Below are positions 5,936 through 55,617 of a stretch of 64,000 nucleotides of DNA, piece by piece (the stretch's first letter is position 1; every line of letters starts with the position of its first letter). The DNA comes from a virus (Duplodnaviria > Caudoviricetes): IMG/VR virus record IMGVR_UViG_3300034061_006011. One strand, written 5' to 3'. A program made the position numbers and the translations under genes. The notes under the pieces are model-generated. The model was not told where the DNA came from and made no database searches. It saw nothing but the letters and a program-made list of their open reading frames with translations.

Positions 5936-6417
5936 CGACCTTCCAACCTATAAACTCCTCGTTTAACCTTAGAACAGATATAACCATCTGATTCCAATTC
6001 TTGACGAGCTAGTTTGAAATTATTGTTCAAACCCGGAATAGAATAATTTAAACTTGAAAACATTTTACATATTTCAGAAAAAGAAATTTCTTTATTGTCA
6101 ATAATACGTTCTTTAATCTTTTCTCTAATATAACGAGAAGATTTGTCTTTTGTTGCGTTCTTTTCAAGAACAGCAACATCAGTCCCAAATCCTTCAGTTG
6201 CATTCTTGACATAATTAGAATCACAAAATATATTTGCGATTTCTTCAAGACCAACTGCGTTTTCAGCTTCATTAGCCTTGAGTGCTTCAACTTTAATGTT
6301 AAAACACTCAATGAATTCTGATAAAGACAACAAATTGTTATAGCCTGTGACTATATTTTTGCCATCTGGACACTTAAGCATGACATAATCTGGAGTCATA
6401 GTATCTCCTAAAATCAA
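5932..6417 (-). CDS. Hypothetical protein, possible C-terminal winged helix
   Basis: 161-aa ORF coupled to recA; ends ELESDGYICSKVKRGVYRL. Confidence 0.6.
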   Translation of the reverse strand: MILGDTMTPDYVMLKCPDGKNIVTGYNNLLSLSEFIECFNIKVEALKANEAENAVGLEEIANIFCDSNYVKNATEGFGTDVAVLEKNATKDKSSRYIREKIKERIIDNKEISFSEICKMFSSLNYSIPGLNNNFKLARQELESDGYICSKVKRGVYRLEGR

Positions 6418-7616
6418 GCTAAAAGGTCGTCTACTTCTATATCAACATCATCATCTGCTTCGACAACCTCTCCAGACACTTTATAGTTTATCACATCAGA
6501 ATAAATTTGCAAATATTCCTTCATCTCTTCAGGTGTAGCATCTAATATTTGTGCATATTCCTCTGCAATTTCATTAGGAATATCATTTCTTTCCATAGAT
6601 GACTTAAACTTAACCTCTTTGCCACCAGTAAATTCTGGATTTACTAAGAAATTACCAGCTCCATTAGCAATAATTCTTCCAGAATCCAGTAATGCGCCCA
6701 GAACACCACCCAATGGATTCATCCCTCTATCAAAATAAAGAGGAATATTATCAACTTCAACAAACGGACGATAAGATCTATTTTTCTTATTCTGAACCTT
6801 AATATTGATCCCAAGAATCTTTTTCTTAGCTGATCCAGCAACGCTCTGCTCAATCTTCTTTTGAGTCTGACTACGCATTCTCAAACTGGCATAGAAAGGC
6901 AATCCTTGCCCACCACCTGCTGTGGTTTCTGGGTTTCCATACATAACCCCAATCTTGTCTCTAATTTGATTCAGAACGACGACAGTAACATCATTCTGTT
7001 CCATCTCTGTATTAAGTTTTCTTAGTTCTTTAGAACAAATCTTAGCCCTTTCTCCGGGCTGTTCATTTCCACCAACAATACGCTTGAAATCAGCTTTGCT
7101 ATATCCTTCAGGTAGTTTTGTTTCTCTTAGTTCTCTTGAACTTGGAGAAACGCTGATTGAATCATAAACAATGCAAATTGGAACTTCGATTTTCTTTGTT
7201 TTTCGGATATAATCAATAACACGATAGATTGTTGAAAAACAATCTTCTAGTGTTTCTGGAGTGTATCTTAAAATCTTAGAGATATCACATTTTGTGGCTT
7301 TTTGAATGAATTCACCATTGATTGCATTTTCTGTATCAAGGATGATTCCAATTCCACCCATTCGCTGAATGCCAGCAAGGATGTTTGCGCCAATAAGACT
7401 TTTGCTAGATGCCGATGGACCATAAATTTCAGATAGTCTGCCACCGGGAATACCACCACCGTAAAACTTGCCAGAACAAGAATAATTAATTGCAAAATTG
7501 CCTGTGTCTACAAAATATCTTGCTTGATCAAGATCTGCTACTACTTTTGCGCCAGTGGCGCTTGCAATATCGGTGTATAAATCAGAGGAGTTAGAATCTT
7601 TCTTTTGACGAGCCAT
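6414..7616 (-). CDS. uvsX: RecA/UvsX recombinase
   Basis: DTGNFAIN, GGIPGGR..EIYGPSASSKS, LDTENA, YDSIS, NQIR.KIG, GGQGLPFYASLR. Confidence 0.92.
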   Translation of the reverse strand: MARQKKDSNSSDLYTDIASATGAKVVADLDQARYFVDTGNFAINYSCSGKFYGGGIPGGRLSEIYGPSASSKSLIGANILAGIQRMGGIGIILDTENAINGEFIQKATKCDISKILRYTPETLEDCFSTIYRVIDYIRKTKKIEVPICIVYDSISVSPSSRELRETKLPEGYSKADFKRIVGGNEQPGERAKICSKELRKLNTEMEQNDVTVVVLNQIRDKIGVMYGNPETTAGGGQGLPFYASLRMRSQTQKKIEQSVAGSAKKKILGINIKVQNKKNRSYRPFVEVDNIPLYFDRGMNPLGGVLGALLDSGRIIANGAGNFLVNPEFTGGKEVKFKSSMERNDIPNEIAEEYAQILDATPEEMKEYLQIYSDVINYKVSGEVVEADDDVDIEVDDLLA

Positions 7617-7637: not shown

Positions 7638-7668
7638 ATGAGACTCAACCTAATAGAGTGAGTCTCAT
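7638..7668. other. 10-bp inverted repeat upstream of uvsX
   Basis: ATGAGACTCA-11 nt-TGAGTCTCAT, with a T-rich tail on the minus strand. Confidence 0.5.
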
Positions 7669-7741
7669 CAAAATTTTCCTAATTTCATAAAATTATCTAG
7701 TGTTTAATAAATACGTTTAACTGTTTTAGAAATGAGAAAAA

Positions 7742-8173
7742 ATGTCAATACCTTTACGATTTACCGAATGGTTGGAAGAAAGAGATAACGAATTACATGA
7801 ATCTCTTAAAAGATGGATTGCAGGAATAGGTGCTGGTGCAACTTTAGCTGCCGGTGCTGCTGGATTACTACCTTCATCTAAACTAAAACAACCAGCAAGT
7901 CAACAAATAGGAAATTCTTCTGTTTCCGTAGAGCACGAAAAAAATGAAAAAGGTCAGACCTATTTTTGGTCTTTCAGCTTCAGGAATTATAGCGGTTCAT
8001 CTCAAGAAGCAAAAAAAGAAGCTATGAATCAAGTTAGAGAAGAACTTTTACGACAATTTGGTCGTGCATCAGGTATCGTAGCCGAAGTGCAAAGCGATGA
8101 TGGAAAAGGAAATATCGTCGTTGATGTAACGCAAGTTAATACATCAAGCGTTCGTGCTGCAAATAACGATTAA
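7742..8173 (+). CDS. Hypothetical protein with capsid-targeting-like leader and hydrophobic segment
   Basis: RFTEWLEE...LHE followed by KRWIAGIGAGATLAAGAAGLL; TAAATA at 7708-7713. Confidence 0.65.
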   Translation: MSIPLRFTEWLEERDNELHESLKRWIAGIGAGATLAAGAAGLLPSSKLKQPASQQIGNSSVSVEHEKNEKGQTYFWSFSFRNYSGSSQEAKKEAMNQVREELLRQFGRASGIVAEVQSDDGKGNIVVDVTQVNTSSVRAANND

Positions 8174-8191
8174 AATACTTATCATTCAGAT

Positions 8192-8758
8192 TTAAGGTTC
8201 AATCGTTGCGTCATTAGATGTGATTTTAATTTTTACTCGATGAACAGCATTAGAAAACTCTCGAATTATTTTAGCGTATAATGCGTTTTCATTCTTATCT
8301 ACAAATATCTTCTTTAATCCTCTAATAGCTGACCCTTGCATATTCATTTTGCCAGTTTCACGCATGATCAATCTAATTAACATTTGTTTTGCTTCTTCTT
8401 TTGAAGGGGCTTCAATTGTTGCTTCAATCTCAACAACAGCTTCCATCTTGCCTTGATGATGTTCCTCGATAATTTCAATCAAAAGATCCTGCACATGAGG
8501 ATCTCTTTTAACTGCTCTAATAATTTGTTCCTTGTACATTGTCCAAGATTTAATAAATCGTTCGTCATCACCAAGTTGCTTGTGAGACGTAATTGGGTTC
8601 GTCAACGTAGAACCCGAAAAATGATGAACAGAAGGTTCTTCCGCTTTAGATTGACCAGCAAACATTGAAGCTGCACCTAACGCTAAACCACCAAGCAAAC
8701 CAAGTCTGCCTTCATCCAATTGAGATTCTCTTAATTGAACATATTCATGAAATTTCAT
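8192..8758 (-). CDS. Hypothetical protein with capsid-targeting-like leader and signal-like segment
   Basis: MKFHEYVQLRESQLDE followed by GRLGLLGGLALGAASMFAGQSKA. Confidence 0.7.
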   Translation of the reverse strand: MKFHEYVQLRESQLDEGRLGLLGGLALGAASMFAGQSKAEEPSVHHFSGSTLTNPITSHKQLGDDERFIKSWTMYKEQIIRAVKRDPHVQDLLIEIIEEHHQGKMEAVVEIEATIEAPSKEEAKQMLIRLIMRETGKMNMQGSAIRGLKKIFVDKNENALYAKIIREFSNAVHRVKIKITSNDATIEP

Positions 8759-8770
8759 TCGAATCCTTTG

Positions 8771-9469
8771 TTAGAATGGTTTAGTTCTAAAATTTTGAAC
8801 AACATTGTACAAATAACCAATCATGTTTTCATCACTTTGTTTTGCTTCTTCTAAATTTTTAATATGTATTTTTAATTTTTCTGGGTAATTATTTGATATA
8901 ACTTGTTCTTTAAATTTTTTGCTTACAATTGCTGTATTACTTAAAAAGTTTTCCATCCAACTTGCAATAGCAGGATTGCTTGCATATTTTTCCATAATCG
9001 AGTCTTTATTATCTATTAATTTTTTAATCAATTGTTGAAATTCACGGATGATGATCCTTTTTGATTCATTTTCCCCAAGAGGAGTTGATTGTGCTGACGT
9101 ATCTGTCGATGGCGCTGCTTCTGCCTTTTGTTTATTTAGATAACGATCATACTTAGAACCCGGAACAGGTTTTAAATTAAATCTTACAAAAAGTGATTCT
9201 ACATCAAATTCGCCATCATTATCAATCGAGAAATCTTTTATAGTATAAATGCTTCCACTTTTTGTATGAATGTCATAGTTATATCCATTGGTTTCTGAAG
9301 GTTGATTTACACTTACAATAATGCTTGTTCTTTCAATTCGTTTTTCTGGTATTCCTAAAGTAAAAGGATTACCATGAGCCTTATCACGATGATGAAAAAC
9401 CGTTGCTTCGTCAGCAAAAATATGATCTCCAGCACCTTCTCTTAACTGAACATATTCATGAAACTTCAT
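8771..9469 (-). CDS. Hypothetical protein with capsid-targeting-like leader
   Basis: Starts MKFHEYVQLRE, identical to the next gene; TAAATA and GGAG upstream. Confidence 0.7.
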   Translation of the reverse strand: MKFHEYVQLREGAGDHIFADEATVFHHRDKAHGNPFTLGIPEKRIERTSIIVSVNQPSETNGYNYDIHTKSGSIYTIKDFSIDNDGEFDVESLFVRFNLKPVPGSKYDRYLNKQKAEAAPSTDTSAQSTPLGENESKRIIIREFQQLIKKLIDNKDSIMEKYASNPAIASWMENFLSNTAIVSKKFKEQVISNNYPEKLKIHIKNLEEAKQSDENMIGYLYNVVQNFRTKPF

Positions 9470-9516
9470 ATGATTCTCCTGATTTTTACAAAACTATTTA
9501 GTGTATAAACAAGAAA

Positions 9517-10038
9517 TTATCCTTGTTGACCGAGTGGATTGTATGTTTGTCCGTACTCATACTTTGCGATTCTATAAAATTTGCCTTCGTCCTCTTTAAC
9601 AAGATAATCTTGAGGTTTCAAAGTCATTTTTTTGTTCCAAGGCGAAATGAACTCAACATGTTCATTACCTGTGTACAAAGCAACCATTCTAGGACTTTGT
9701 TCTGGACGCACAGGTCCACCAATGTTTCCTACATAAGATTTTGAAAATTTTTCAGGCTTAACAACATATTGTTCACGACTAGGTCCACTCACAATAATGT
9801 CATTAACTTCAACTGTATTAGTAGTTTCTTCGCCATCCTCGGTAACAGTAACAATCGGTTTTGACTCTTGTGATACTGTGTAGGAAAAAGGAGGCATATT
9901 TTCATCTGTAGCAACATAATTATAATTTTTATTTTGTTTAGTAGTTGGTAAAAATTTTAGACCAGCAGCAACTTCTTCTATGTTGATGGTATTAACAGCA
10001 TTTTCTCGCATAAGATAATATTCTTGAAAACTTTTCAT
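9517..10038 (-). CDS. PGDYG-like two-repeat protein
   Basis: T.DGEE...NDIIVSGPSREQY..KPEKF...Y repeated as SPW...L.PQDYLV...GKFY.I...Y..TY; leader MKSFQEY. Confidence 0.55.
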   Translation of the reverse strand: MKSFQEYYLMRENAVNTINIEEVAAGLKFLPTTKQNKNYNYVATDENMPPFSYTVSQESKPIVTVTEDGEETTNTVEVNDIIVSGPSREQYVVKPEKFSKSYVGNIGGPVRPEQSPRMVALYTGNEHVEFISPWNKKMTLKPQDYLVKEDEGKFYRIAKYEYGQTYNPLGQQG

Positions 10039-10073
10039 AACTTTCTCCTTGAGTTATTTAGTATATAAACAAA

Positions 10074-10101
10074 AAAACACCCATAAAAATATGGGTGTTT
10101 T
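10074..10101 (-). terminator. Rho-independent terminator after gp32
   Basis: AAAACACCCATA-AAAA-TATGGGTGTTTT with T-runs on both strands. Confidence 0.75.
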
Positions 10102-10122
10102 CTGACAATTGTTCAGCAAATA

Positions 10123-11070
10123 TTACTTTCTGCCAAATCCAATATTTCCAAGCTGTGCTTCCATGTCATCATCAAGCATGCCATCAATCCCATCCAAAAG
10201 ACTGCTTTCAACTTTAGGCGCAGATTTTGACTGTGTTGATGACTTAAATGTAGCTTGTTTAGGTTCAGATTGACTGTTGCCATTATCAAGAAAAGCAGTC
10301 AATGCTTCTTCCATCTGATCAATTGTCAGATAAGTTGGAATTACTTCCAAATCATGATAAGACGTTAACCATCTATTGATCTGTTCCTTTGTGCCCAACT
10401 GAGAAGCATCTTCAAAGAAACTTTGATCGTAGTTTGGAAATCCATCCTTGCCACGAAGAACCTTAACAACCTTGAAGTCTCTGCCACTCAATGGATGAGC
10501 AACATCGCCCAAAGCTCGCTTGCCTGTTGTCTCGTTCCCTGAAATTGAAAGACAAATAATATTGTGAACAGTCTTTCCACAAGAAAAAATCTTGGGTCCA
10601 ATATTCGTTTCAATATTATTGGTCTTAGGATTCAGCTGAGACCTAACGATACAATTGTAGTAGTATCGTTCGACTGGCTTAATTGATCGAGCTTTCTCTT
10701 GAATACTTTTTGCTCGATCAGGAGGCATCTTTTTAGATTTCTCCCACATAGCATTGTATTCACGACAAATTGGACAATCAGTGTCTGGGTTAACAGCTTT
10801 CCACTGTGGACCTCTTGGTGTATGTGTCAACCTCCTTGTGCAAAAAATTGTTTTTGCATTTGGATATTCACCAAGGCGATGAATTCTTGTGGGGTGAAAA
10901 AATGGTTTGCCCTTAAGCTTAGGCAACAACCTAAGCAAAACAAATCCATCTTTTTCTGGCATACGAACGTAATTATCGTTAATGCCGCCACTATTTTGTT
11001 CTTTGTTTAATCTCTCTGCTTCTTTTGTGATATCGCCAATATCTAGCGTATCCAATTCATAGTCTGCCAT
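10123..11070 (-). CDS. gp32: Single-stranded DNA-binding protein (T4 gp32-like)
   Basis: LRLLP, H...C...CPIC zinc site, RYYYNCIV, KIFSCGK, GRDFK, FPNYDQSFF, acidic C-terminus. Confidence 0.85.
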   Translation of the reverse strand: MADYELDTLDIGDITKEAERLNKEQNSGGINDNYVRMPEKDGFVLLRLLPKLKGKPFFHPTRIHRLGEYPNAKTIFCTRRLTHTPRGPQWKAVNPDTDCPICREYNAMWEKSKKMPPDRAKSIQEKARSIKPVERYYYNCIVRSQLNPKTNNIETNIGPKIFSCGKTVHNIICLSISGNETTGKRALGDVAHPLSGRDFKVVKVLRGKDGFPNYDQSFFEDASQLGTKEQINRWLTSYHDLEVIPTYLTIDQMEEALTAFLDNGNSQSEPKQATFKSSTQSKSAPKVESSLLDGIDGMLDDDMEAQLGNIGFGRK

Positions 11071-23245: not shown

Positions 23246-23437
23246 ATGAAACTAGAGAATGGAGAATTTTCCATGATTGACTCAATGATAGAACAAACGA
23301 TTAGTGTTGTAGAAAATCTTGAGAAAAGATTGCATGAGATTGGTGAGAAGCAAAAAATCATGGAAAAAAAGCTAGAAAAGATACATGTAACTAAAATTAA
23401 AGAAAAATCAATAGTTATTTGCGCTTCCGCACATTGA
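23246..23437 (+). CDS. Small coiled-coil hypothetical protein
   Basis: 63-aa ORF filling the gap between genes. Confidence 0.4.
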   Translation: MKLENGEFSMIDSMIEQTISVVENLEKRLHEIGEKQKIMEKKLEKIHVTKIKEKSIVICASAH

Positions 23438-23885
23438 TGTAAAACAAGTAACTATTTTTTGACCCCGGTCTAAGACTCTTTTGATTTTGACGATAATCTA
23501 ATACAAGTTTTGTATCAGGATTTTCATAGATAACAAAATCTTTCAATCTTGATAAAACAGTTGTTATAAATTCTTTACTACCAGTAATTCTTAATGTATC
23601 TTCTTGTACCGTGCTTCCTTTATGAAAACTATCGATAGGTTCAAGTTGTAAAGGAATGTTTGGAGCTAATGCTTTCCAAAATCTTACAATTTCAGATTTC
23701 TTAGCCTTCCAAGGTTTTAATTTTGGATGATATCCTTGAACTTCTGGTTGTGGAACAGAACCCATAGTTGGTGCAGGAACATTGCTCGCATTAGCAACAG
23801 GAGAAGAAGATGTAGTTGGCTGTGCAGCAATCTGAGGCTCAGATGCTTCTTCAAATTTATTGATATATTCCCAAAATGTTTTCAT
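23415..23885 (-). CDS. Hypothetical protein with capsid-targeting-like leader
   Basis: Preferred start MKTFWEYINKFEEA at 23885. Confidence 0.65.
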   Translation of the reverse strand: MKTFWEYINKFEEASEPQIAAQPTTSSSPVANASNVPAPTMGSVPQPEVQGYHPKLKPWKAKKSEIVRFWKALAPNIPLQLEPIDSFHKGSTVQEDTLRITGSKEFITTVLSRLKDFVIYENPDTKLVLDYRQNQKSLRPGSKNSYLFYINVRKRK

Positions 23886-23903
23886 TGCTAATATATACTT
23901 AGT
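23886..23903. promoter_or_regulatory. 18-bp symmetric bidirectional spacer
   Basis: CAT-6 nt-TATATA-6 nt-ATG; TATATA is self-complementary. Confidence 0.55.
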
Positions 23904-24272
23904 ATGATCACAATTCATGAATTCAAACATAAAATATTTTTAACAGAAGCTGATGCTCCTCCTGCTGGCGCAGCGCCTCCTGCCGGTGGCGCACCTCCTG
24001 CTGCTGGTGGCGCTCCTCCTCCCGGTGGCGATGCAGGCGGTCTTGGTGGTAGTCTTGGTGGAGATCTAGGAGGCTTAGGAGGAGGAGGAATGGGTGGTGG
24101 AGCACCTCCTCCCGGATCAGATTTAGGCGGTGCAATTGGTGGTGCGGCAGGTGGCGGAACAACTCCTATAACAGATATTAAGAAATTAAATGCTTGGGAT
24201 CTTTTGGAAAAGTTTTTCCGTGATAAGAAAGATCCTAAAGAAGACAAAGATCCTCTGGACAAGTATACCTGA
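23904..24272 (+). CDS. Gly/Pro/Ala low-complexity protein with leader
   Basis: MITIHEF...LTEA, then repeated GAPPPAGG and GG.LGG. Confidence 0.6.
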   Translation: MITIHEFKHKIFLTEADAPPAGAAPPAGGAPPAAGGAPPPGGDAGGLGGSLGGDLGGLGGGGMGGGAPPPGSDLGGAIGGAAGGGTTPITDIKKLNAWDLLEKFFRDKKDPKEDKDPLDKYT

Positions 24273-25386: not shown

Positions 25387-27387
25387 ATGCGTAAGATTGA
25401 TTTCAAGAAAATCAAAGCACAAAATTTTTTGTGCTTTGGAGAAAATGGAATTGAAATAGATTTTAAAAATTATGATTCTGTCGTTCTAATCAAGGGAAAA
25501 AATCTTGATGTTAATGACAATAATCTTAATTCAAGCAATGGTAGTGGTAAAAGCAGTATACTAGATGCCTTGCTCTATGGTTTATTCGGTAAGACTGTAA
25601 AGAATCCTAAAAAAATTGGTGTAAAAGATGTCATTAACAATAAAACAAATAAGAAAATGGTAATAGAGATATATTTTGATGATATTAAGATTCAAAGAAC
25701 AAGAAAGCCTGATGGATTAAAATTATGGCAATCAAAAGATGGAAACTTTGAAGAATCTACAGAATTGACTAGAGGCGAAATTAAACAAACACAAGAATTA
25801 ATTGAATCAATTCTTGGCTTCAATTGTGAAACATTTAAATCTACTTGCATATTCACTGACTCAAACACAGATAGCTATCTCGAATCCAATGCTTCCGACA
25901 GAAGGATTATTATTGAAAATCTTTTAGGTTTAGAGAAATATCGCACATATAACGAAATTGTTAAGGAAAATATAAAACAGACAAAGTCATCAATTGCTAT
26001 TGCTGAAATAGAAAGCCATAACGCTGATAATTCTCTTAATGATATTAAAAAACAACTCGAACAACTTAACGATAAAGAAAAAACATGGAAGAAAACAATA
26101 AATGATGAAATTGAAATAATTAAAAATGAAATAATTTTACTTGAAAAACAAGTTAAAGATCTTGCAGAATTTGACCCACAAGTTGAAAAATATAATAACG
26201 CTCAAAAAGAAATTGAATTAAAAAGAGAAGAACAAAACCTTCTTGAAGAAAAAATATTAAAATCAGAATCAACTAAAGATCAAATTGATTTAAAAATGGA
26301 AGAAGGAAAATCTATTTTACTAGAAAACAATTCAGAGTTTTTAAAAATTAAGAATCAAATTGATTTAATCAGTAACGAAATTACACAAAATCAAAACACA
26401 ATTGAAAAAACTAAAAACATCAAAGAAGGTATTGTTTGCAAACATTGCTTCTCTATAACACAAAAAGAAAACTATGAAGTCGTTAGAGATGACTGTAAAA
26501 GTCAAATAGAAGAATTACAAAAATTAAAAGACATAGAATCAAACAAAATCACTGTCATTAATGACAAAATCAATGAAATTAAAAAACAATTACAAACTTT
26601 GATTGATATGAAATCAAAAATAGTAACATCTATTTCTGCTAATAAATCAAAAATTCAAACCATTCAGCAAGACATAAACACTTTGCAAACAATAATAAAA
26701 CCAGAAACATTAAACACTATATCAAGAATAGAAAGTAAGATATCATTACAAAAAATTAATATTATGGAGAAAACAAATGCTATTGAAGGCAATTCTCCTT
26801 ATTACGATCTCATTATAACAGCAAAAAATAATTTAGAAACTGCTTTGTCCAAGAGCAAAGACAATAAAGAAAAGTTGGTTGAACTGATGCAAAAAATTCC
26901 TTACTTCAATTTTTGGGCAGATGCCTTTGGAGATAAAGGTGTTAGGAAGTTTGTAATAGATCAAATACTACCAATACTAAACGATCATGTTGCAGAAATG
27001 CTTGATTTGTTAGTTGATAGCAATTTGATTTTAACATTTGATAATGAATTTAACGAAACAATTAAACGTGTTACTGATGATACACCAATAATATATGATC
27101 TTCTATCTAATGGACAAAAAAGAAGAATTAATCTGGCAATCTCACAAGCATTTGCTCATGTTAGAGAATTGAATACAGGATCTATGCCTAATATCCTGTT
27201 TTTAGATGAAGTTTCTATCAATATGGATTCTCAAGGAAATAATTCCATATATAAATTGATAAAAGAAATGGCTAAAAATAAAATAGTTTTTGTTACTACT
27301 CATGATCAAGAATTATCTGATTTATTAGCTGATTCTAGCAGAATAAATCTAAAAATGGAAAATGGAATCTCTTCTATTGATCGTTAG
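25387..27387 (+). CDS. gp46: Rad50/SbcC-like ATPase (T4 gp46-like)
   Basis: NGSGKSS, coiled coil with CKHC hook, LSNGQK, FLDE, TTH. Confidence 0.9.
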   Translation: MRKIDFKKIKAQNFLCFGENGIEIDFKNYDSVVLIKGKNLDVNDNNLNSSNGSGKSSILDALLYGLFGKTVKNPKKIGVKDVINNKTNKKMVIEIYFDDIKIQRTRKPDGLKLWQSKDGNFEESTELTRGEIKQTQELIESILGFNCETFKSTCIFTDSNTDSYLESNASDRRIIIENLLGLEKYRTYNEIVKENIKQTKSSIAIAEIESHNADNSLNDIKKQLEQLNDKEKTWKKTINDEIEIIKNEIILLEKQVKDLAEFDPQVEKYNNAQKEIELKREEQNLLEEKILKSESTKDQIDLKMEEGKSILLENNSEFLKIKNQIDLISNEITQNQNTIEKTKNIKEGIVCKHCFSITQKENYEVVRDDCKSQIEELQKLKDIESNKITVINDKINEIKKQLQTLIDMKSKIVTSISANKSKIQTIQQDINTLQTIIKPETLNTISRIESKISLQKINIMEKTNAIEGNSPYYDLIITAKNNLETALSKSKDNKEKLVELMQKIPYFNFWADAFGDKGVRKFVIDQILPILNDHVAEMLDLLVDSNLILTFDNEFNETIKRVTDDTPIIYDLLSNGQKRRINLAISQAFAHVRELNTGSMPNILFLDEVSINMDSQGNNSIYKLIKEMAKNKIVFVTTHDQELSDLLADSSRINLKMENGISSIDR

Positions 27388-27405
27388 GTTTTTACATTTT
27401 TATTT

Positions 27406-27434
27406 TTGATTTATCAGTCAAAAATTGCTATGAT
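27406..27434 (+). promoter_or_regulatory. sigma70-like promoter for nrdJ
   Basis: TTGATT-17 nt-TATGAT with extended TG. Confidence 0.55.
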
Positions 27435-27470
27435 TAAACATATCTATTTTCTTTTGAGTAAGGGGTTCTC

Positions 27471-29918
27471 ATGTATCAGTACGCCACAGCATTTGAAAAA
27501 TGTGTAACATATTTTGAGGGAGATGAGCTAGCCGCTAAAGTGTTTTTGGACAAATACGCTCTTAAAGACAACAGCTCTAATTTGCTTGAAGAAACACCAG
27601 TTGACATGCATCATCGTCTTGCGAAAGAATTCGCAAGAATCGAAGCAGAAAAGTATACAGAACCTCTTTCAGAAGAACAAATCTTTTCTTTATTCGATAA
27701 ATTCAAGTATATTGTACCTCAAGGAAGTCCTATGTTTGGTATCGGAAACGATCACCAAATCATTTCACTTTCAAATTGTTATGTAGTTGAAAGTCCAAAA
27801 GACAGCTATGGCGGTATTCTTAAGGTTGACGAACATTTAGCTCAAATCTCTAAAAGAAGAGGTGGAGTTGGTGTAGACATATCAACTCTACGTCCTGCCG
27901 GAGAGCCTGTTAAGAACGCTGCTAGGACCAGCACGGGCATTGGTTCATGGATGGAACGATACAGCAATACAATCAGAGAAGTCGGTCAGGCGGGGCGCAG
28001 AGGCGCTCTAATGCTTAGTATCCATGTTTCTCATAAAGACATTGAATCATTCATTACCATTAAGAACGACAGTTCAAAGGTCACAGGAGCAAACATCTCT
28101 GTTTTGCTTAGTAATGAATTTTTGGAAGCTGTTGAAAAGGGTGAAAAGTTCCGTTTACGTTTCCCAGTAGATGCTCCACCTAGCGATAGTGACATCTATG
28201 TCGATGCTAAGGAATTATGGAAAAAGATCATCCACAATGCATGGCTAAGAGCTGAACCCGGTCTTTTGTTCTGGGATCAAATCACTAAGTACAATGCTGT
28301 TGATTGTTATGCAGAAGATGGATATAAAACTATATCCACAAATCCCTGTGCCGAATTACCAATTTGCGCTTTTGACAGTTGCCGCTTAATGGTTCTTAAT
28401 TTGTTCTCTTATGTTGTCAATCCTTTTACCAAAGATGCATATTTTGATTTTGCATTGTTTGAAGAACATGCAGTAATCTGTCAGCGATTGATGGATGACA
28501 TGATTGATCTTGAACTTGAAAAAGTAAGCGAAATTATTAAGAAAATTAAGAAAGATCCAGAATCTAGCACTATTAAAGCTAATGAGATTGAACTTTGGCA
28601 AGATATTTACAAAAAGTGTGAAAATGGTAGAAGAACTGGGACTGGATTGACTGCTTTGGGTGATACGATGGCAGCTTTGAGTATTGCTTATGGTAGCAGA
28701 CAAAGCATTGATATGACTGGCAAAATTTGTAGAGCTTTATGCTTGTCTTCATTTAGATCTAGTGTTGATATGGCTAAGAAAACAGGTGCGTTTCCTGTTT
28801 GGGATTGGAACAAGGAGAAGGATTCTGAATTCCTTTTGATGTTGCGAGATCTTGATGCAACTCTTTATGAAAACATGCAAAAGTATGGTAGAAGGAATAT
28901 TGCTAACTTAACAATCGCTCCAACAGGATCTGTGTCTATTATGACACAGACAACTTCTGGAGTCGAACCTCTGTTCATGCTTTTCCCATATACTAGAAGA
29001 AAGAAAATCAATCCAAATGATAAAAATGCAAGAGTAGACTTTGTTGATCCTAATGGAGATCATTGGCAAGAATTTGAAGTGTATCATCCTAAAGTTAAAA
29101 TGTGGATGGAAATTACAGGTGAAAAGGATCTCAAAAAGTCTCCTTGGTTTGGTTGCTGTGCTGAAGACATTGATTGGGTTGCAGCTGTAGAATTACAAGC
29201 TGAAGCACAGAAGTATGTTGATCATGCAATTTCTAAGACTGTTAACTTGCCAGAAGAAGTAACAGAAGAACAAGTTGCTAAGATTTATGAAGCTGCATGG
29301 AAGTACAAATGCAAAGGTATGACTGTCTATCGTAAAAACTGTCGTACTGGAGTTCTGATAGAAAAGCCTGCTAAGAAAGAAGTAGAAGAAAAGATTAAAA
29401 AGAACGATGCTCCAAAACGTCCTGCTAATATTGAAGCAGAGTTGTATCTGCCGATAGTAAAGGGTGACCCTTATTATGTTGTTGTTGGTCTTCTTGATGG
29501 TGAGCCATATGAAGTATTTGCTGGTCTGAACACAGAAGATGGTAAACCAGTAATCAAATGCAAAGAATCTAAAGGATTGCTTAAGAAGCTCAATAGGGGC
29601 AAGTATGTGTTCCAAGCTGGTAATGAATCATTTAACTTGATTAATATCAGCAATCATGAAAACGGAGATGCTTTGTGCAGGATGGTAAGCACTTCATTGC
29701 GTCATGGTGCGGATATTAGCTTTGTCGTGCATCAGCTTGAGAAAACCAAAGGTGATCTTGTTAGTTTGAGCAAGGTTCTTGCCAGAACACTTAAGAAGTA
29801 TATTAAGGATGGCACCAAGGTTCATGGTGAAGAATGTCCTTCTTGCCAAGGCAATCAAGTTGAAAGAAATGATGGTTGCGTTTTGTGTAAGTCATGTGGT
29901 TGGTCAAAGTGCGGATAA
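27471..29918 (+). CDS. nrdJ: Class II (adenosylcobalamin-dependent) ribonucleotide reductase
   Basis: SLSNCYV, RRGGVG, RRGALM, TNPCAE, IAPTGS, ISKTVN, C-terminal TSCPD-like domain and zinc ribbon. Confidence 0.92.
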   Translation: MYQYATAFEKCVTYFEGDELAAKVFLDKYALKDNSSNLLEETPVDMHHRLAKEFARIEAEKYTEPLSEEQIFSLFDKFKYIVPQGSPMFGIGNDHQIISLSNCYVVESPKDSYGGILKVDEHLAQISKRRGGVGVDISTLRPAGEPVKNAARTSTGIGSWMERYSNTIREVGQAGRRGALMLSIHVSHKDIESFITIKNDSSKVTGANISVLLSNEFLEAVEKGEKFRLRFPVDAPPSDSDIYVDAKELWKKIIHNAWLRAEPGLLFWDQITKYNAVDCYAEDGYKTISTNPCAELPICAFDSCRLMVLNLFSYVVNPFTKDAYFDFALFEEHAVICQRLMDDMIDLELEKVSEIIKKIKKDPESSTIKANEIELWQDIYKKCENGRRTGTGLTALGDTMAALSIAYGSRQSIDMTGKICRALCLSSFRSSVDMAKKTGAFPVWDWNKEKDSEFLLMLRDLDATLYENMQKYGRRNIANLTIAPTGSVSIMTQTTSGVEPLFMLFPYTRRKKINPNDKNARVDFVDPNGDHWQEFEVYHPKVKMWMEITGEKDLKKSPWFGCCAEDIDWVAAVELQAEAQKYVDHAISKTVNLPEEVTEEQVAKIYEAAWKYKCKGMTVYRKNCRTGVLIEKPAKKEVEEKIKKNDAPKRPANIEAELYLPIVKGDPYYVVVGLLDGEPYEVFAGLNTEDGKPVIKCKESKGLLKKLNRGKYVFQAGNESFNLINISNHENGDALCRMVSTSLRHGADISFVVHQLEKTKGDLVSLSKVLARTLKKYIKDGTKVHGEECPSCQGNQVERNDGCVLCKSCGWSKCG

Positions 29919-46703: not shown

Positions 46704-47216
46704 ATGAAAACATTTTTTGATTGGATGGCAAGTAACAGATATTATACTGAAGATACAAGAACAGGCATGCCTGTTAATCCTAATCAGCAAAAAGCACCTG
46801 TTGCTCCTAATCAGCAACAAACAACTGGTTTCCCAGATAATCGTGACACAAGTGTAAGAAGAGCAGCACCAAGCAATCCACAAGCTAACAATCAAATGAA
46901 TGTAAGCAAAGAATTCGAAAATAGATGGTCTGCAAATTTTCCGTTAATAGTACAATCACTTAAACAAGCTGGTGTATCGATTAATAGTCTAAGTCCCAAT
47001 GACCAGTCAGCCGCTACCGGTGGTATCAGCAATATTTCAAAAAACTTAGATAATGTCGCAAAGAATTTTATAGATTACAAAAATCAGACTGTTCAAACTT
47101 TTGCTATATTAAGAAATATGTTGAACCAAAAAAGACAAGAACTAAAAAATTCACCGCCGCCTGTTAATCGAATGAGTGATCCCGCCTACAGTAGAGAGGC
47201 GGGAAGAGTTCAATAA
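46704..47216 (+). CDS. Hypothetical Q/N/P-rich protein with leader
   Basis: MKTFFDW...YTED. Confidence 0.7.
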   Translation: MKTFFDWMASNRYYTEDTRTGMPVNPNQQKAPVAPNQQQTTGFPDNRDTSVRRAAPSNPQANNQMNVSKEFENRWSANFPLIVQSLKQAGVSINSLSPNDQSAATGGISNISKNLDNVAKNFIDYKNQTVQTFAILRNMLNQKRQELKNSPPPVNRMSDPAYSREAGRVQ

Positions 47217-47233
47217 TTAATTAAATTTACAAA

Positions 47234-47932
47234 TTACATTCCGCCGTAGCCGCCACCCATTCCAGTGCCGCTACCGCCGCCTTGACCGCCGCCACCCATT
47301 CCAGCACCCATACCACCGCCCATGCCGCCCATGCCACCACCAAAGCCGCCACTCATATCACCAGAGCCTTGATCTGCGCCACCTGCTCCTGCGCCGCCAC
47401 TCATATCACCACCTGTTGGCGGTGCGCTTACATTTGGAGCGCCTTCAGGAGAACCTTCTTCTCCACCTTCTTCTTCTCCACCCTCTTCTTCTCCCTCTTC
47501 TCCTTCTTCATCTTCTCCAGAAATACTCTTGATAAGATTATCGAGTTGATTTAAAAGATCTTCAATTTGTCCACCCTTGTCTTCATCTTGACTCTTGAAA
47601 TTTTCAATTTGATTTTTAAGAGTTTCAATAGCTGACTTAGTGCTTTCTGTATCTGATCCACCTTCGCTTGGTGCAACATTTGATTCATCGGTGTCTGCTG
47701 GCGCATCACCTTGTTGACCTTGTTGATTTTGGAAAGTATTCATTTGATCTTGTGGGATCTGTGCTTGTGCAGAAAAATCTGGTTGACCACCAGCAGGAGG
47801 AGCGCCAGCATTGCCACCACCCATGGGGTTAGGATTTTGCATCATACCGGGCATCGGCATGCCACCTGCATCTTGTTCTCTAAAAACCCTTTTGTTTTCA
47901 AGAATTCTGTACATCTCATAAAAAGTCTTCAT
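47234..47932 (-). CDS. Low-complexity Gly/Met/Glu protein with leader
   Basis: MKTFYEMYRILEN, EEGGEE run, GGMG tail. Confidence 0.7.
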   Translation of the reverse strand: MKTFYEMYRILENKRVFREQDAGGMPMPGMMQNPNPMGGGNAGAPPAGGQPDFSAQAQIPQDQMNTFQNQQGQQGDAPADTDESNVAPSEGGSDTESTKSAIETLKNQIENFKSQDEDKGGQIEDLLNQLDNLIKSISGEDEEGEEGEEEGGEEEGGEEGSPEGAPNVSAPPTGGDMSGGAGAGGADQGSGDMSGGFGGGMGGMGGGMGAGMGGGGQGGGSGTGMGGGYGGM

Positions 47933-47940
47933 ATTTACTC

Positions 47941-48477
47941 CTAAACTATCTTAAAATCAGCGTTTTCAGTCTTTCCAACAGATGAACCACTAACAGTATC
48001 TTCTTGGAATCTCTGACAAATAAGTTGTAGTCTCAATGCATTATATAGTTTAAACTCACCTAATTTTCTTTCAATAATGACCCAATCTTCATTTAAAAAT
48101 GGAGTCTTGACTCTACTACCTATTTTAGGTGGGTGACCAAGATCCCTTAAAACTGCACGATAGTTCAAATCAAATGTCATTTCATCAGGTGAATCTATAC
48201 CAAAAGCAGTTTGCATATTTTGGGAAGGAATTGGTTCGTATACACACCATAGTTGTATAGGATTTTGACTATAAATTTTTGCTCTTGATTCAACATAAAG
48301 AGGATCAATATTATTTGCATCTATGAAAAGTTCATAATAGAACAATGGTGATCCGCCCAGACGGATTGTTTCTTCATCATAAAGATCAAACAAGCTTCTT
48401 TCTGGCAATCCATCATCGAATTGCTGCAAGCTTCCTGTGGGACAATATGGTTTTCCATCTGGTTTATATATTGTCAT
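47941..48477 (-). CDS. gp14: Neck protein (gp14-like)
   Basis: E.I.LGG....YY, DPLY.E, FGIDSPDE..F, P.IG. Confidence 0.7.
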   Translation of the reverse strand: MTIYKPDGKPYCPTGSLQQFDDGLPERSLFDLYDEETIRLGGSPLFYYELFIDANNIDPLYVESRAKIYSQNPIQLWCVYEPIPSQNMQTAFGIDSPDEMTFDLNYRAVLRDLGHPPKIGSRVKTPFLNEDWVIIERKLGEFKLYNALRLQLICQRFQEDTVSGSSVGKTENADFKIV

Positions 48478-48484
48478 TTTTTCC

Positions 48485-48889
48485 TTAAGTACAACTGTTA
48501 AGAGAAATTTGTGCTGTAATCAGGATCTGTCCACCACTTCCGGGCAATTGAAAAGGAGCAGCGGTAAATCTTTCAATCCATAGTAAATCACCACCGACAT
48601 TTGTAATATAATATCCAAAAACAGTTGCAGCTGCTGTAATATTAAATGTTTGTTCTGGATAGCTTGCAGTGGTAACACCAGAAGTTGTTGCAACTGTCCA
48701 AGTTGCTGCTGTTAGAGTGATGCCTGCATATCCAGTAGCAGTAACTTGTGTTATATCACCTAACACAGTAGTTGAGCTTGGTGTTAAATTATTTGAGTAA
48801 AGACGCAACACAGTATTTGTTGGTGCTACCTTATTAAGCATATTGCTTAAAAGAACTACTTCGCCAACATCTGGAATTACTAATGCCAT
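48485..48889 (-). CDS. Small virion structural protein (tail/baseplate)
   Basis: LRLYSN, GYA.ITL...W, F......VFGYY; resembles 60123-60641. Confidence 0.6.
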   Translation of the reverse strand: MALVIPDVGEVVLLSNMLNKVAPTNTVLRLYSNNLTPSSTTVLGDITQVTATGYAGITLTAATWTVATTSGVTTASYPEQTFNITAAATVFGYYITNVGGDLLWIERFTAAPFQLPGSGGQILITAQISLNSCT

Positions 48890-48926
48890 GAAAAACTCCT
48901 AGTTAATTCGATCTATATATATTTAG

Positions 48927-49526
48927 ATGGTAATTCATAAAAAAGATGGAAGTGTTTTTAAATTAAATGGACCTAATGAAATTATGTTCACACAGGAATC
49001 GTGGAGTGCCTTCAAAACACACAATTTATCAAACTTATCAAATTGCAAAATGGAATCAAATATTCCTCATGTTATTTTAGGAAAGAAGAAAATTGTTGAA
49101 GAAAATAAGGTAATTGAACCAATTAAAGAAGAAATTGTTGAAGAAGAAATTGTTATTGAAGAAACTCCTGAAGAAATTGTCGTTGAAGAAGTTGTTGAAG
49201 ATAAAAAGAAAACAAATGAATTTGATAATTTTAAAAAAACTATTATGCATTGTGCTTTAGCAAAGAAAATAGAAGTGAAAGATGATTTGTATGGTGAAAC
49301 TGCATTAAAGGTAAAATTTATTGATAAATTTACATTTGAATCTATAGTTATGAACAAAAATGATTTTGTACTTATATTTTGGACAAAACTAGATAATTTG
49401 ACAATTGGATCTGTGTTATATCCACAAGATGATTCAAAAAGATGGTGGGAAGTGAGAGAAATTGAGGATGTTCCCGGTGGTCACAAGATTACTTGTTGTA
49501 TCACCAGAAACACCCCTGCTTTTTAA
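48927..49526 (+). CDS. Hypothetical protein with acidic linker
   Basis: 199-aa ORF; TATATA 5 nt upstream. Confidence 0.65.
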   Translation: MVIHKKDGSVFKLNGPNEIMFTQESWSAFKTHNLSNLSNCKMESNIPHVILGKKKIVEENKVIEPIKEEIVEEEIVIEETPEEIVVEEVVEDKKKTNEFDNFKKTIMHCALAKKIEVKDDLYGETALKVKFIDKFTFESIVMNKNDFVLIFWTKLDNLTIGSVLYPQDDSKRWWEVREIEDVPGGHKITCCITRNTPAF

Positions 49527-51448
49527 GTTATTGCTTTATCCATCATCTCACCTATTGCTGCTCGAACAGCAGCAGCATCAGCATCTTTGCCAAATCTTTT
49601 TCTCATTGTTCCAGAAACTCCTAAATTCTTTTTATATAATACATAACTTAGGCTACTCATTAAACTTCTCAAGGTTTGTGAAATGACAGTTTGTGCAAGT
49701 CTTGTCGCTATTGGACGAGTTAAATTAAAAAGTCTTAAATTCCTTAAAGCTTTATCTTTTATTAGATTTTTAAAAGCTAAATATGTTGTTGGCGATATGA
49801 TTCCTTCTTCAGGATCATAAAATGTTTTCAAGAAAATATTAAATCTTCCCTCATAATTTTCTTTTACGAATTTTTTAACAAGTTCATCAAATAAATCATC
49901 ATCACCCATTACAAGCATAAGGTTTTCTAAATTTTGATTTAAATCTTGTCTGCCCGGTCCTGCTTCATATTCAGATGATTTATTTGGGTATACACCTCCC
50001 GCCAATGTTCTATCTCTTTTGTCTAAATCTTCTGGAACATCTCTTTCATTATCAAATTGATAAAATATTGGTTTTCTTTTTCGATTTGCAGCAGGTTGTT
50101 CTATATCTCTTGGATCATAATGATGTCCAACTCTACGAGTTGCTTCCAAATTTCTGATCAGATCTCCTAATCTTTGAACTTCTTCTGGATCTTCTTTTGC
50201 TTCTGCGTCTGCAACTTTTTTTTGTAATTTTTCTATTGTTTGATTAATGTTAAAAAGTATTTTACCCGGAAGCAATTCTGGCATCGTTTGACCGGGATGA
50301 TGAGGATTAGCTACTGTAGGATGTCTTAACTTTGAGAAAGACATTGTATCAAAGTCTTCACCATGATAATTTTGTATTGGATATGTGATTAAATCTATAT
50401 CAACTAAAGCATCAATTAATTTTTCTTCAAATTTAACACTGTGTTCAGCATGTTGAACAATATGTGATAAATTGTTAAATGTCATTTTATGTGGATTTCT
50501 TATATTGACTTCCTTTCTTAAATCATCAGCAAATCTAGCTCGATTTGCTAATAAGTACGAATATATATCAGTATTTGGTTTCTTAAGTTGAAATTTTTTA
50601 TTTAAAATGGTTACATCTTTTTGTGTAAGTGCTTTTTTAATAAATTTTTCTTCTAATTCTTTTATGTATTTTGCATACTTGTTGTACAATGGTGTCCTAT
50701 AGATATCTCTTTCTATTTCTTCTTCTGTAGCTTCAGTGTTTGCAGCATATTCAGTTTTTGATCTTTCTCTGTGTGTTTTTGGATCTATAGTATTCGGTGC
50801 ATGTAAAAGTCCTTGTGAGGCATATGTTACCCAAGATTGTAAATTGTTTGAAATTTGTTTTACTTGTGGACAAGTAAAACCAATAGTGTACCAGTTACCA
50901 ACTGGATTTTCAGGATCGAAATTTCTAATTTTGCTTAAATCAAAACCAACTGCACTTGCTCCTCTTGGTCCTTCCAGTCTATCAACTAATTCTCTAATAT
51001 AATTATTTTTTATTGTTGTAGATGTTGCTCGTTTTCTAATAACGAAACTATATTCTGTTCTTGGATAATTGATGTTCATCCAAGCTCCACCACCATCTGG
51101 TCTTTGTGCCAATTCACTATCAATAAAGTTTTTTGCATTATTATATGCACTTTCTCTGATTCTTGTTACTTCTTCAGGCTGATTGCCTTTGTAAGTCAAT
51201 CCTTGATATATTCCGTCTGCTGCATCTTGTATTGTTTCGTAATAACCTTTACTGAATCCTTTAATTTTTTTCTTTCTAGCTTCTTCTCTCTGCGTAAGTG
51301 CTGCGGGTAAATCAAGTCCATATCGCTCTTCAATGGCTCTTGCCCATACAGATTGTGGAAATTGATGTAGAAAATCCATATCATCGTTTCCGAACAGATG
51401 AAAGTCGTGACTTACATGTCCAGAAAAGTATTCACTAAAAAGTTTCAT
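49523..51448 (-). CDS. Large hypothetical protein with leader
   Basis: 641 aa, starts MKLFSEY; no recognisable domain. Confidence 0.75.
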   Translation of the reverse strand: MKLFSEYFSGHVSHDFHLFGNDDMDFLHQFPQSVWARAIEERYGLDLPAALTQREEARKKKIKGFSKGYYETIQDAADGIYQGLTYKGNQPEEVTRIRESAYNNAKNFIDSELAQRPDGGGAWMNINYPRTEYSFVIRKRATSTTIKNNYIRELVDRLEGPRGASAVGFDLSKIRNFDPENPVGNWYTIGFTCPQVKQISNNLQSWVTYASQGLLHAPNTIDPKTHRERSKTEYAANTEATEEEIERDIYRTPLYNKYAKYIKELEEKFIKKALTQKDVTILNKKFQLKKPNTDIYSYLLANRARFADDLRKEVNIRNPHKMTFNNLSHIVQHAEHSVKFEEKLIDALVDIDLITYPIQNYHGEDFDTMSFSKLRHPTVANPHHPGQTMPELLPGKILFNINQTIEKLQKKVADAEAKEDPEEVQRLGDLIRNLEATRRVGHHYDPRDIEQPAANRKRKPIFYQFDNERDVPEDLDKRDRTLAGGVYPNKSSEYEAGPGRQDLNQNLENLMLVMGDDDLFDELVKKFVKENYEGRFNIFLKTFYDPEEGIISPTTYLAFKNLIKDKALRNLRLFNLTRPIATRLAQTVISQTLRSLMSSLSYVLYKKNLGVSGTMRKRFGKDADAAAVRAAIGEMMDKAIT

Positions 51449-51488
51449 TCATGTTCCTCAATTTGACTGTTACTTTATATATATAAAC

Positions 51489-52376
51489 ATGTCATATTCT
51501 TGTGCTTCAAATACTATGTATTTTCCCCGTCCAAGTGCGGAGTCGCAAAATTGTAGTACTAATAATTTCAATCTTGGGGTTTCTGATCCCCTTGATATTG
51601 CTCAATTATCACCAAGACCAAACAGAACAAAAGTAAAAGCACAAATTAGAGATTATATTCTTTTAATGCTTGGTGCTCCAGTAGTTACAATTGAATTAGA
51701 TAGTCAACAACTTGATGCTGCTGTTGATTTATCTCTTCAGATTTATGAAGAATATGCACCAAGAGAATTCTTTAAATACCATGTGTTCCAGACAATTCCC
51801 GGTAAAAGCATTTACACAATGCCTCCAGATATTGGTTATGTAAGAAATGTTTTTTACAAACAAATGGCAACATTTAGTTTTAGTTCTTCTGACCTTGGTG
51901 GAGCTATTCCTATTGAATATTTTTATCCGGGTGGAGCATATGCTTCTATTACAGGTGGTATGATTGATAGTGTGACTCCAATTTGGGGTCGAGTTGGAGA
52001 ATGGAGTCTTTACAAAGAATATGAAAGAACTTATGCTCGTAGTGCAAGTAATTTAGGTGGTTGGGAATGGCTTGGTGGTTATCAAAATATTAAATTATAT
52101 CCAATTCCGAGAGCACCAACTGCTGTTATTGTTCATTATTTGCAAAAAAACAATGATTGGCAGAGAGTTAATCAGGCTATGCAAGAAGGTGCTTTAGCGC
52201 ATGCAAAGATTATGTTAGGAAGAATTAGAGGCAAATATACAACATTGCCCGGTGCTCAGGGTGGAGTTCAGTTAGATGGAGCTACTTTGTTGACAGAGGG
52301 GATTCAAGAAAAGAAGGATTGGGAAGAAAGATTGATTACCAGATATGGCGATATTCCTTTCATTTCAATGGGATAA
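51489..52376 (+). CDS. gp13: Neck/adaptor protein (gp13-like)
   Basis: YILLMLGAPVVTIELD..Q, K..LG..RGKY..LPG..GGVQLDG. Confidence 0.85.
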   Translation: MSYSCASNTMYFPRPSAESQNCSTNNFNLGVSDPLDIAQLSPRPNRTKVKAQIRDYILLMLGAPVVTIELDSQQLDAAVDLSLQIYEEYAPREFFKYHVFQTIPGKSIYTMPPDIGYVRNVFYKQMATFSFSSSDLGGAIPIEYFYPGGAYASITGGMIDSVTPIWGRVGEWSLYKEYERTYARSASNLGGWEWLGGYQNIKLYPIPRAPTAVIVHYLQKNNDWQRVNQAMQEGALAHAKIMLGRIRGKYTTLPGAQGGVQLDGATLLTEGIQEKKDWEERLITRYGDIPFISMG

Positions 52377-52379
52377 TAC

Positions 52380-53012
52380 ATGAAAACATTCAAAGAATAT
52401 GTCGAATTAAGAGAAACAAAAACAAATTTGCTCCAGCAAGGAAAAGGTTGGCTTGGTGGACTTGTAAAATCTGCTGGTAAATTTGCAGCTTCATTTATTC
52501 CGGGCGCAGACGCAGCAAGTGCAGCTGTGGATATGGCTACACAAATATATAATGTCAAGAAGCAAAAAGGAAAAGTAAATGAATTAATTAGAAAAGCAGC
52601 ATCTTTACCAGATAATAGTAGAGGATCTGTAAAGAATGGAGATATTTTTGATGTTTCTGACACTTTGTGGAATACAGTTAATAAAGACTCTCAAGATAAA
52701 ATTATAAATATTGTTGACAAAAATTTAGATAGATATATTGCAGCTAATCAGATGCCTAAACCTAGTTTTGCTGACATGCTTGCTCACAAGTATGTTATTG
52801 GTAAATTACCAAGAGCAACATCTAAAATAGTTCCTGTACAAGGACAAGCAGCGCCACAACAAGGTCAAGCTGCACCACAACCACAACAAGCAGCACCACA
52901 ACAAGGACAGCAACGTCAAGCTGCACCACAACAACCACAACAACCACAGCAACGTCAAGCTGCACCACAACAACCACAACAACCACAGCAACGTCAAGCT
53001 GTTCGTCGTTAA
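52380..53012 (+). CDS. Hypothetical protein with leader, amphipathic segment and Q/P repeat tail
   Basis: MKTFKEYVELRE, GWLGGLVKSAGKFAASFIPG, QAAPQQPQQ repeats. Confidence 0.7.
   Translation: MKTFKEYVELRETKTNLLQQGKGWLGGLVKSAGKFAASFIPGADAASAAVDMATQIYNVKKQKGKVNELIRKAASLPDNSRGSVKNGDIFDVSDTLWNTVNKDSQDKIINIVDKNLDRYIAANQMPKPSFADMLAHKYVIGKLPRATSKIVPVQGQAAPQQGQAAPQPQQAAPQQGQQRQAAPQQPQQPQQRQAAPQQPQQPQQRQAVRR
52908..53000 (+). repeat. 39-bp coding tandem repeat (QQRQAAPQQPQQP, about 2.4 copies)
   Basis: CAGCAACGTCAAGCTGCACCACAACAACCACAACAACCA at 52908 and 52947, partial at 52986. Confidence 0.85.
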
Positions 53013-53042
53013 AAATATTTAGCATTAAAGATAAATAACAAT

Positions 53043-55602: not shown

Positions 55603-55617
55603 GTTAATTTAAATTTA

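Follow-up and report, generated by a model that had tools for sequence, protein, structure and literature searches.

The closest described counterpart of the genes analyzed here is the head cargo of bacteriophage T4, which, to our knowledge, is known only as acting in the cytoplasm, as in the case of the anti-restriction protein IPI and the ADP-ribosyltransferase Alt. Such proteins (IPI, IPII, IPIII, and Alt) carry a capsid targeting sequence (CTS), a short N-terminal tag that is removed by the protease gp21. The CTS corresponds to the first 10 residues of IPIII, gp21 cleaves after Leu/Ile-x-Glu, and an Asp at CTS position 10 blocks the processing but not the targeting; the propeptides of giant phages often contain several cleavage sites (PMC9026906). 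We analyzed a 64,000-nucleotide (nt) stretch of DNA, hereafter the window, from the record IMGVR_UViG_3300034061_006011, an AT-rich sequence (33% G+C) of an uncultured, distant T4-like lake myophage of the giant type, and focused on two convergent genes separated by 18 nt, p143 and p188. The two products have the same N-terminal order, namely, an acidic CTS-like tag, a Leu-x-Glu site, one or two basic residues, and an uncharged, weakly hydrophobic run of 17 to 22 residues, which is then followed by an unrelated C-terminal domain. Based on this layout, we consider, with a probability of roughly 40%, that p143 and p188 are head-packaged pro-proteins and that their trimming exposes a signal-peptide-like or fusion-peptide-like N terminus.

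Both leaders contain two potential cleavage sites. In p143, a Leu-His-Glu ends at residue 20 and is preceded by another Leu-x-Glu at residues 11 to 13, with no other site anywhere in the protein; in p188, a Leu-Asp-Glu ends at residue 16, and the earlier Leu-x-Glu covers residues 9 to 11. These are the only tagged open reading frames (ORFs) of the window with two Leu-x-Glu sites within the first 20 residues. The second site is directly followed by Lys-Arg in p143 and by Arg in p188. The p188 leader resembles the leaders of T4 IPI, IPII, and IPIII as read from the T4 record, and the p143 leader aligns with the p188 leader by hhalign. The association between tag and site is also visible at a larger scale, as in four related sequences a Leu/Ile-x-Glu ends at residues 8 to 20 in 49 of 124 tagged ORFs (40%) versus 100 of 593 untagged ORFs (17%; P = 9e-8).

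The conservation of this arrangement could be followed in the p188 family. An exhaustive HMMER search returned nine divergent relatives, the members of the resulting alignment (A2) being 26 to 47% identical to p188, and a scan of IMG/VR added one more relative within a 181-kb contig (locus L056 of G007). Ten members bear the hydrophobic run, that is, nine from alignment A2 (p188, P0001, and P0015 to P0021) and the L056 copy. All 10 carry the tag at the N terminus, and all have a Lys or Arg within 4 residues past the junction Glu (Glu16 in p188), which itself is nearly invariant, with Leu or Ile at position -3 in seven of them. The net charge before the run is negative in nine members (-1 to -4) and 0 in P0018. 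The run measures 15 to 19 residues in this family, and after its small-x-small end there is usually a Gln or Glu, plus a Pro two or three residues on. On the aligned sequences, the N-terminal architecture is real, nonrandom, and conserved in the p188 family. An earlier note on the window had quoted peptides from the two convergent genes, with Leu-His-Glu in p143 and Leu-Asp-Glu in p188, and these agree exactly with the ORF list; the basic-then-hydrophobic stretch that it placed directly behind Leu-x-Glu is present in both proteins and is retained across the p188 family at the identities given above. The same note had described the end of the p188 run as c-region-like, and this goes beyond chance, with a small-x-small end in all 10 run-bearing members and Ala at position -1 in 9 of them.

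Variants of the family show that the run can be lost or combined with other cargo. P0022, found on two contigs, keeps the tag and the C-terminal domain but has exactly the run deleted, whereas P0002 and P0003 (a 15-member cluster that recurs on many contigs, including one of 304 kb) and also L002 combine this tag and a longer Gly-rich run with an unrelated C-terminal domain. Because it is missing in the former and joined to another domain in the latter, the run appears to be an optional, transferable address module. A word-indexed search limited to residues 1 to 42 returned no additional cargo types. N-terminal Gly/Ala-rich uncharged runs are rare: of the 500 ORFs of three related sequences, only 4 contain one, and three of these four are tagged (Fisher P = 0.01). 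A chance low-complexity stretch without targeting function, in fast-evolving orphan genes, might be proposed instead, since both genes are orphans with no family assignment and p143 is known from close homologues only (83 to 97% identity). This explanation is disfavored by the conservation of the layout down to 26 to 47% identity in the p188 family, and it also has to account for the rarity of such runs, their bias toward tagged ORFs, and the reuse of the module with other cargo in many contigs; we regard it as very improbable.

The runs of p143 and p188 are 22 and 17 residues long, with 64% and 59% Gly/Ala/Ser, respectively. Their best 15-residue Kyte-Doolittle (KD) means are 1.63 in p143 and 1.78 in p188, the best 19-residue means are 1.55 and 1.25, and they are uniformly apolar, with a hydrophobic moment of 0.04 to 0.10 overall and of 0.08 to 0.09 in p143. 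Taken together, the runs have a best 10-residue KD mean (KD10) of 1.6 to 2.1, a length of 15 to 22 residues, and 47 to 75% Gly/Ala/Ser, whereas the ordinary signal peptides and membrane helices of the phage lineage have a KD10 of 2.6 to 3.3, 12 to 33% Gly/Ala/Ser, an N-flank charge of +1 or +2, and no tag. A glycine-zipper pattern is formed by Gly20, Gly24, and Gly28 in p188 and by Gly28, Gly32, Ala36, and Ala40 in p143, and its sole database echo is a subthreshold Pfam match to ATP19 (E = 0.015). AlphaFold2 (AF2) gives no confident structure for the run in either protein. A twin-arginine translocation (Tat) signal was considered and rejected, as no twin arginine is present and all members have just one Arg or Lys ahead of the run.

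The small-xxx-small pattern of both proteins, the marginal hydrophobicity of the run, and its lack of a confident AF2 structure would fit another role for packaged cargo, in which the run acts in the head or structurally and never at a membrane, as a glycine-zipper self-association helix, as a contact with the scaffold core or the DNA, or as a flexible linker. However, the conserved basic residue before the run and the Ala-x-Ala-type end after it are then left unexplained, and the run is dispensable in P0022. We consider such a capsid-internal role unlikely.

A gp21-type protease is encoded by relatives of this phage. Peptidase_S77, the T4 gp21-type family, was found in G003 (sheath protein, 53% identical; protease match, 90 bits) and in G007 (100.8 bits), and G007 carries both this protease and a p188-family gene. 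The major capsid proteins of G003 and G007 begin with a 10-residue stretch ending in Leu-Asn-Glu, which is then followed by Ala. This start fits the T4 rule and would suggest a corresponding specificity of the protease. As a separate observation, the L056 locus of G007 (42656 to 59206) holds more than 15 consecutive tagged genes, including those for enzyme-like proteins and the p188-family member, and the portal, S77 protease, scaffold, and major capsid genes lie on the same 181-kb contig.

According to the reading that we favor, p143 and p188 would be made late as soluble pro-proteins, and their acidic N-terminal tag would act like the T4 CTS to bring them into the prohead core. There, a gp21-type head protease would cut after the Leu-x-Glu directly ahead of the hydrophobic run, and a cut at this place would make the export-like segment the new N terminus, consisting of a basic residue and then the Gly/Ala-rich, weakly hydrophobic stretch. 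As predicted from sequence, the trimmed members of the p188 family match a signal peptidase I substrate in their n-h-c layout, which begins right where the acidic propeptide and its protease-type site end, and the exposed segment would thus be built like a Sec signal peptide, including an Ala-x-Ala-type end; that of p143 would be more like a signal anchor. In full-length p143 the charge before the run is -2, and not positive as in the n-region of a Sec signal. The acidic propeptide and the weak h-region suggest that the full-length form would be exported poorly and that trimming would improve this. Upon infection, both proteins would exit the head together with the DNA, trimmed and unfolded, and be directed by the exposed segment to the inner membrane, where p143 would stay anchored, while p188 would be freed into the periplasm after cleavage by signal peptidase I. 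The step after ejection could be either Sec-dependent export from the cytoplasm or a direct insertion resembling that of a fusion peptide, both of which we infer entirely.

A more specific version of this mechanism, which we find rather unlikely as a whole, is a two-step address. In this version, a Sec-type signal would be masked by the acidic capsid-targeting propeptide and unmasked by the head protease, the protein would be injected unfolded, and the Sec machinery and signal peptidase of the new host would deliver the C-terminal domain to the periplasm within seconds, before any phage gene expression. If either version is true, a class of cargo redirected to the envelope once injected would extend what a phage can manipulate at time zero by one compartment, and the possible uses would include immediate superinfection exclusion, help in DNA entry, and the countering of periplasmic or membrane defenses. 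It would also imply an evolutionary rule, whereby a cleavable capsid tag placed before an export signal retains a protein in the producer's cytoplasm but lets it be exported in the next host.

Several points weigh against the head-packaged pro-protein reading. The residue at position -3 of the junction is noncanonical in 3 of the 10 run-bearing members, and the leader of the L056 copy has no canonical Leu/Ile-x-Glu at all. No gp21-type protease was found within the window or on the nearest record, G001. The run of p143 has no clear Ala-x-Ala end or cleavage motif, and the conservation of p143 says little because only close homologues are known. The runs are also shorter and less hydrophobic than the signal-anchor-release (SAR) domain of the T4 antiholin RI, whose run, taken from the T4 record, has a KD10 of 2.37 and 39% Gly/Ala/Ser, and they are not at the extreme N terminus; a Hessa-type scale predicts no stable membrane helix from them, although the Hessa-scale values, like the Eisenberg-scale ones, are only rough. 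T4 internal proteins act in the cytoplasm, and we know of no demonstration that an injected protein is exported. In addition, loosely defined tags are found on about one-fifth of ORFs (47 of 217 in G007), a high number for capsid cargo. Finally, the 33 nt of tag-coding DNA in p188 (8726 to 8758) and in an unrelated neighboring gene for a protein of 232 amino acids (aa) (9437 to 9469), both on the minus strand, are identical at 31 positions and diverge immediately after, indicating a recent tag duplication or gene conversion. Such near-identical tag DNA on neighboring genes implies that the tags spread by recombination, so that a tag need not function on every gene.

These last observations also bear on an alternative that we rate as somewhat unlikely, namely, ordinary export in the producing cell. 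Here, p188 would carry a weak Sec signal peptide and p143 a signal anchor, each with an N-terminal extension, and the proteins would function in the producer, at its inner membrane or in its periplasm, for example, in superinfection exclusion or lysis control, while the tag would have hitchhiked by cassette recombination at conserved gene starts. Extended signal peptides exist, and selection for processing by signal peptidase I should produce just such an n-h-c layout with a conserved Ala-x-Ala-type end. The shared tag DNA and the high frequency of tags agree with hitchhiking, as does the setting of the two genes. They belong to a group of four small genes, p143, p188, the 232-aa gene, and a 173-aa gene, which lies between the genes of the UvsX-like and gp32-like proteins, whereas the gp32 and UvsX genes adjoin in the relatives G002 (26646 to 28900; UvsX 87% identical) and G003 (212117 to 214301; UvsX 45% identical), which indicates that region 7742 to 10038 of the window is an inserted, strain-variable island. 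However, ordinary export leaves the conserved Glu-ending junction without a role, even though the spacer and site of p188 are family specific and lie outside the tag DNA held in common with the neighboring gene. Moreover, the extension is acidic, the run is far weaker than the ordinary, untagged signal peptides of the lineage, and P0022 keeps the tag and the domain without the run, so that this copy cannot be exported. The positions of the features are collected in Table 1.

Table 1. Features of the p143-p188 locus and its surroundings, in window coordinates
Feature	Position	Strand	Description
RecA/UvsX-like protein	6414-7616		
T4 late-promoter octamer TATAAATA, 7-of-8 match	7706..7713	+	28 nt before the p143 start codon; read from the sequence
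p143 gene, 143 aa	7742..8173	+	Tag, two Leu-x-Glu sites, Gly/Ala-rich run, small alpha/beta C-terminal domain (ORF list)
p143 leader, residues 1-20	7742..7801	+	Net charge -4; CTS-like core shifted by about 4 residues; residues 13 and 20 each close a Leu-x-Glu
p143 basic-then-hydrophobic segment, residues 21-46	7802..7879	+	Uncharged run at residues 25-46; small-xxx-small pattern; Lys/Arg on both sides
p143 C-terminal domain, about residues 50-143	7889..8170	+	Predicted strands-helix-hairpin; AF2 mean predicted local distance difference test (pLDDT) score 51, domain 57-73
p188 gene, 188 aa	8192..8758	-	Tag, two Leu-x-Glu sites, signal-peptide-like run, alpha/beta C-terminal domain (ORF list)
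p188 C-terminal domain, residues 62-188	8195..8575	-	Predicted helix, hairpin, two helices, hairpin; AF2 pLDDT 80-89 in core
p188 signal-peptide-like segment, residues 17-39	8642..8710	-	Gly-Arg, 17-residue Gly-zipper run, Ser-Lys-Ala end
p188 leader, residues 1-16	8711..8758	-	Net charge -2; CTS-like tag at residues 1-11, then family-specific spacer ending Leu-Asp-Glu
232-aa tagged gene	8771-9469	-	No hydrophobic run; part of the 7742-10038 island
173-aa tagged gene	9517-10038	-	No hydrophobic run; part of the 7742-10038 island
Terminator-like hairpin, strong	10072..10103	-	After the gp32-like gene; TATATAC/CTAAATA promoter-like motif next, opening the tagged-gene unit
gp32-like protein	10123-11070		

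Beyond the island, the window encodes a gp18-like sheath protein that is 33 to 34% identical to T4-type sheaths, a gp15-like protein, and a T4 baseplate protein. The island itself varies among close relatives. Only about 120 aa remain of the 232-aa gene in two records, the near-identical G001, a 99%-identical strain (67224 to 67586), and the related L002 (5652 to 6011), and in both the shortened version runs into the beginning of the following tagged gene; L002 has a different C-terminal domain at the position of p188. The 173-aa gene has a 58%-identical tagged homologue in G007, and its product shows a subthreshold match to the Pfam family PGDYG (E = 2e-4; 22 bits, with a cutoff of 27).

CTS-like tags are carried by many genes of this genome, and a few further tagged proteins were noticed. 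In the window, a third tagged protein of 210 aa (52380 to 53012, plus strand) has a basic, amphipathic, Gly/Ala-rich helix directly after Leu-Arg-Glu (hydrophobic moment, 0.41), which resembles a surface-active peptide, and its C terminus is a Gln/Pro/Ala repeat tail. At 23415 to 24272, two ORFs overlap on opposite strands and are candidate genes; the one on the plus strand opens with a tag-like sequence and continues into a low-complexity stretch rich in Pro, Ala, and Gly. In G002, a tagged 256-aa protein (L050; 18063 to 18833, minus strand) has a Leu-Asn-Glu directly followed by a 29-residue, uncharged, Ala/Gly/Pro-rich run, with no basic residue between them.

With respect to expression, TATATAC/CTAAATA motifs are found upstream of the 173-aa and 232-aa genes, and p188 starts 12 nt beyond the 232-aa gene. 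Among the words found ahead of genes, 7-mers of the TATATAT type show the strongest enrichment (10 observed versus 0.8 expected), and they also occur before the sheath gene, so that the promoter-like motifs ahead of the island belong to a class found before the sheath gene as well. In the relative G002, the regions ahead of genes are enriched in a 7-mer related to the T4 late octamer. In the window, the exact T4 late promoter TATAAATA shows no clear enrichment (16 found versus 8.1 expected). The island motifs, as putatively classed, seem weakly compatible with late expression. A near-perfect 11-bp inverted repeat at 7640 to 7670, in the intergenic region from which the UvsX-like gene and p143 diverge, could be a hairpin of the 5' untranslated region or an operator.

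The C-terminal domains gave little indication of a common origin. The earlier note had proposed that they carry a similar helix; a BLASTP comparison of the two domains gave an E value of 0.93, and hhalign of the two family alignments (79% probability) covers only the N-terminal tag and the run, so that the proposed likeness was not borne out. In the structural comparison, both AF2 models contain a hairpin, a helix, and a further hairpin, and the Ser-x-Glu-Glu-Ala-Lys-like turn indeed opens the helix after the β-hairpin in both, but this is a common arrangement and the p143 model is of low confidence. Consequently, of the pro-protein reading in that note, we retain the layout of acidic leader, Glu site, basic-hydrophobic stretch, and Ala-x-Ala-type end, as seen in the p188 family, and drop the likeness of the two C-terminal domains. 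Database searches were also uninformative. Pfam and PHROGs gave no family for p143, p188, or the alternative cargo; neither the region nor p188 was matched by megablast and tblastn against 50,697 phage records; no usable match to p143 or p188 came from the ESM Atlas; and Foldseek with the p188 model gave nothing at an E value of ≤0.001 in the PDB or BFVD. The wide VIA-align comparison returned generic two-layer alpha/beta folds, with best Z scores of 6.4 for p188 (a generic ferredoxin-like fold) and 5.6 for p143, both under the noise level of the tool (7 to 8). A shared fold was considered because BcsD, YajQ, an S6 permutant, and GspL/XcpY-type periplasmic domains appear in both VIA lists, and was set aside as too weak.

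Among the described systems, the T4 CTS is the nearest to the leaders of p143 and p188. Both are short N-terminal tags with an aromatic residue, Glu, and another aromatic residue at about positions 4, 6, and 7 and with a Leu/Ile-x-Glu end, both are attached to small proteins that are unrelated to one another and encoded in variable islands, and relatives of the phage studied here encode a gp21-type protease; the island of four tagged genes likewise resembles the hyperplastic internal protein loci of T4-type phages. The leaders of p143 and p188 differ in having two tandem sites within 16 to 20 residues, and they are known here from sequence alone. They differ further in what follows them, as we know of no described T4 CTS protein in which a hydrophobic segment resembling a signal peptide comes right after the cut. 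Correspondingly, a literature search combining CTS with "signal peptide" returned only engineering papers, and although T4-type head cargo is itself known, we found no description of a natural CTS-type tag directly followed by an export-like signal.

Behind the cut, the trimmed p188 family shares with Sec signals for signal peptidase I the basic n-region, the h-region of 15 to 19 residues, and the small-x-small c-region followed by Gln or Glu. However, in the full-length proteins, this segment sits behind an acidic extension of 16 to 20 residues, the h-region is unusually Gly/Ala-rich and weak, and p143 departs from the Sec pattern at the cleavage motif. The SAR domains of the T4 RI antiholin and of SAR endolysins offer another likeness, an N-terminal, weakly hydrophobic, Gly/Ala/Ser-rich helix that can sit in or leave the membrane, but the runs described here are preceded by an acidic tag and have no lysis genes nearby. 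In class I fusion peptides, such as those of influenza HA2 and HIV gp41, a Gly/Ala-rich, moderately hydrophobic segment lies immediately behind a protease site, and only the maturation cut turns it into the new N terminus and makes it membrane active. The analogy with p143 and p188 is one of logic alone, as the proteases, proteins, and membranes differ, and we claim no homology. For the proposed fate after ejection, the closest examples are gp14, gp15, and gp16 of T7 and gp7, gp16, and gp20 of P22, which are carried in the head, leave on infection, and end in the host envelope. Those proteins are large, conserved, and essential channel builders of podoviruses, whereas p143 and p188 are the products of small accessory genes in a variable myovirus island and carry a cleavable CTS-like tag.

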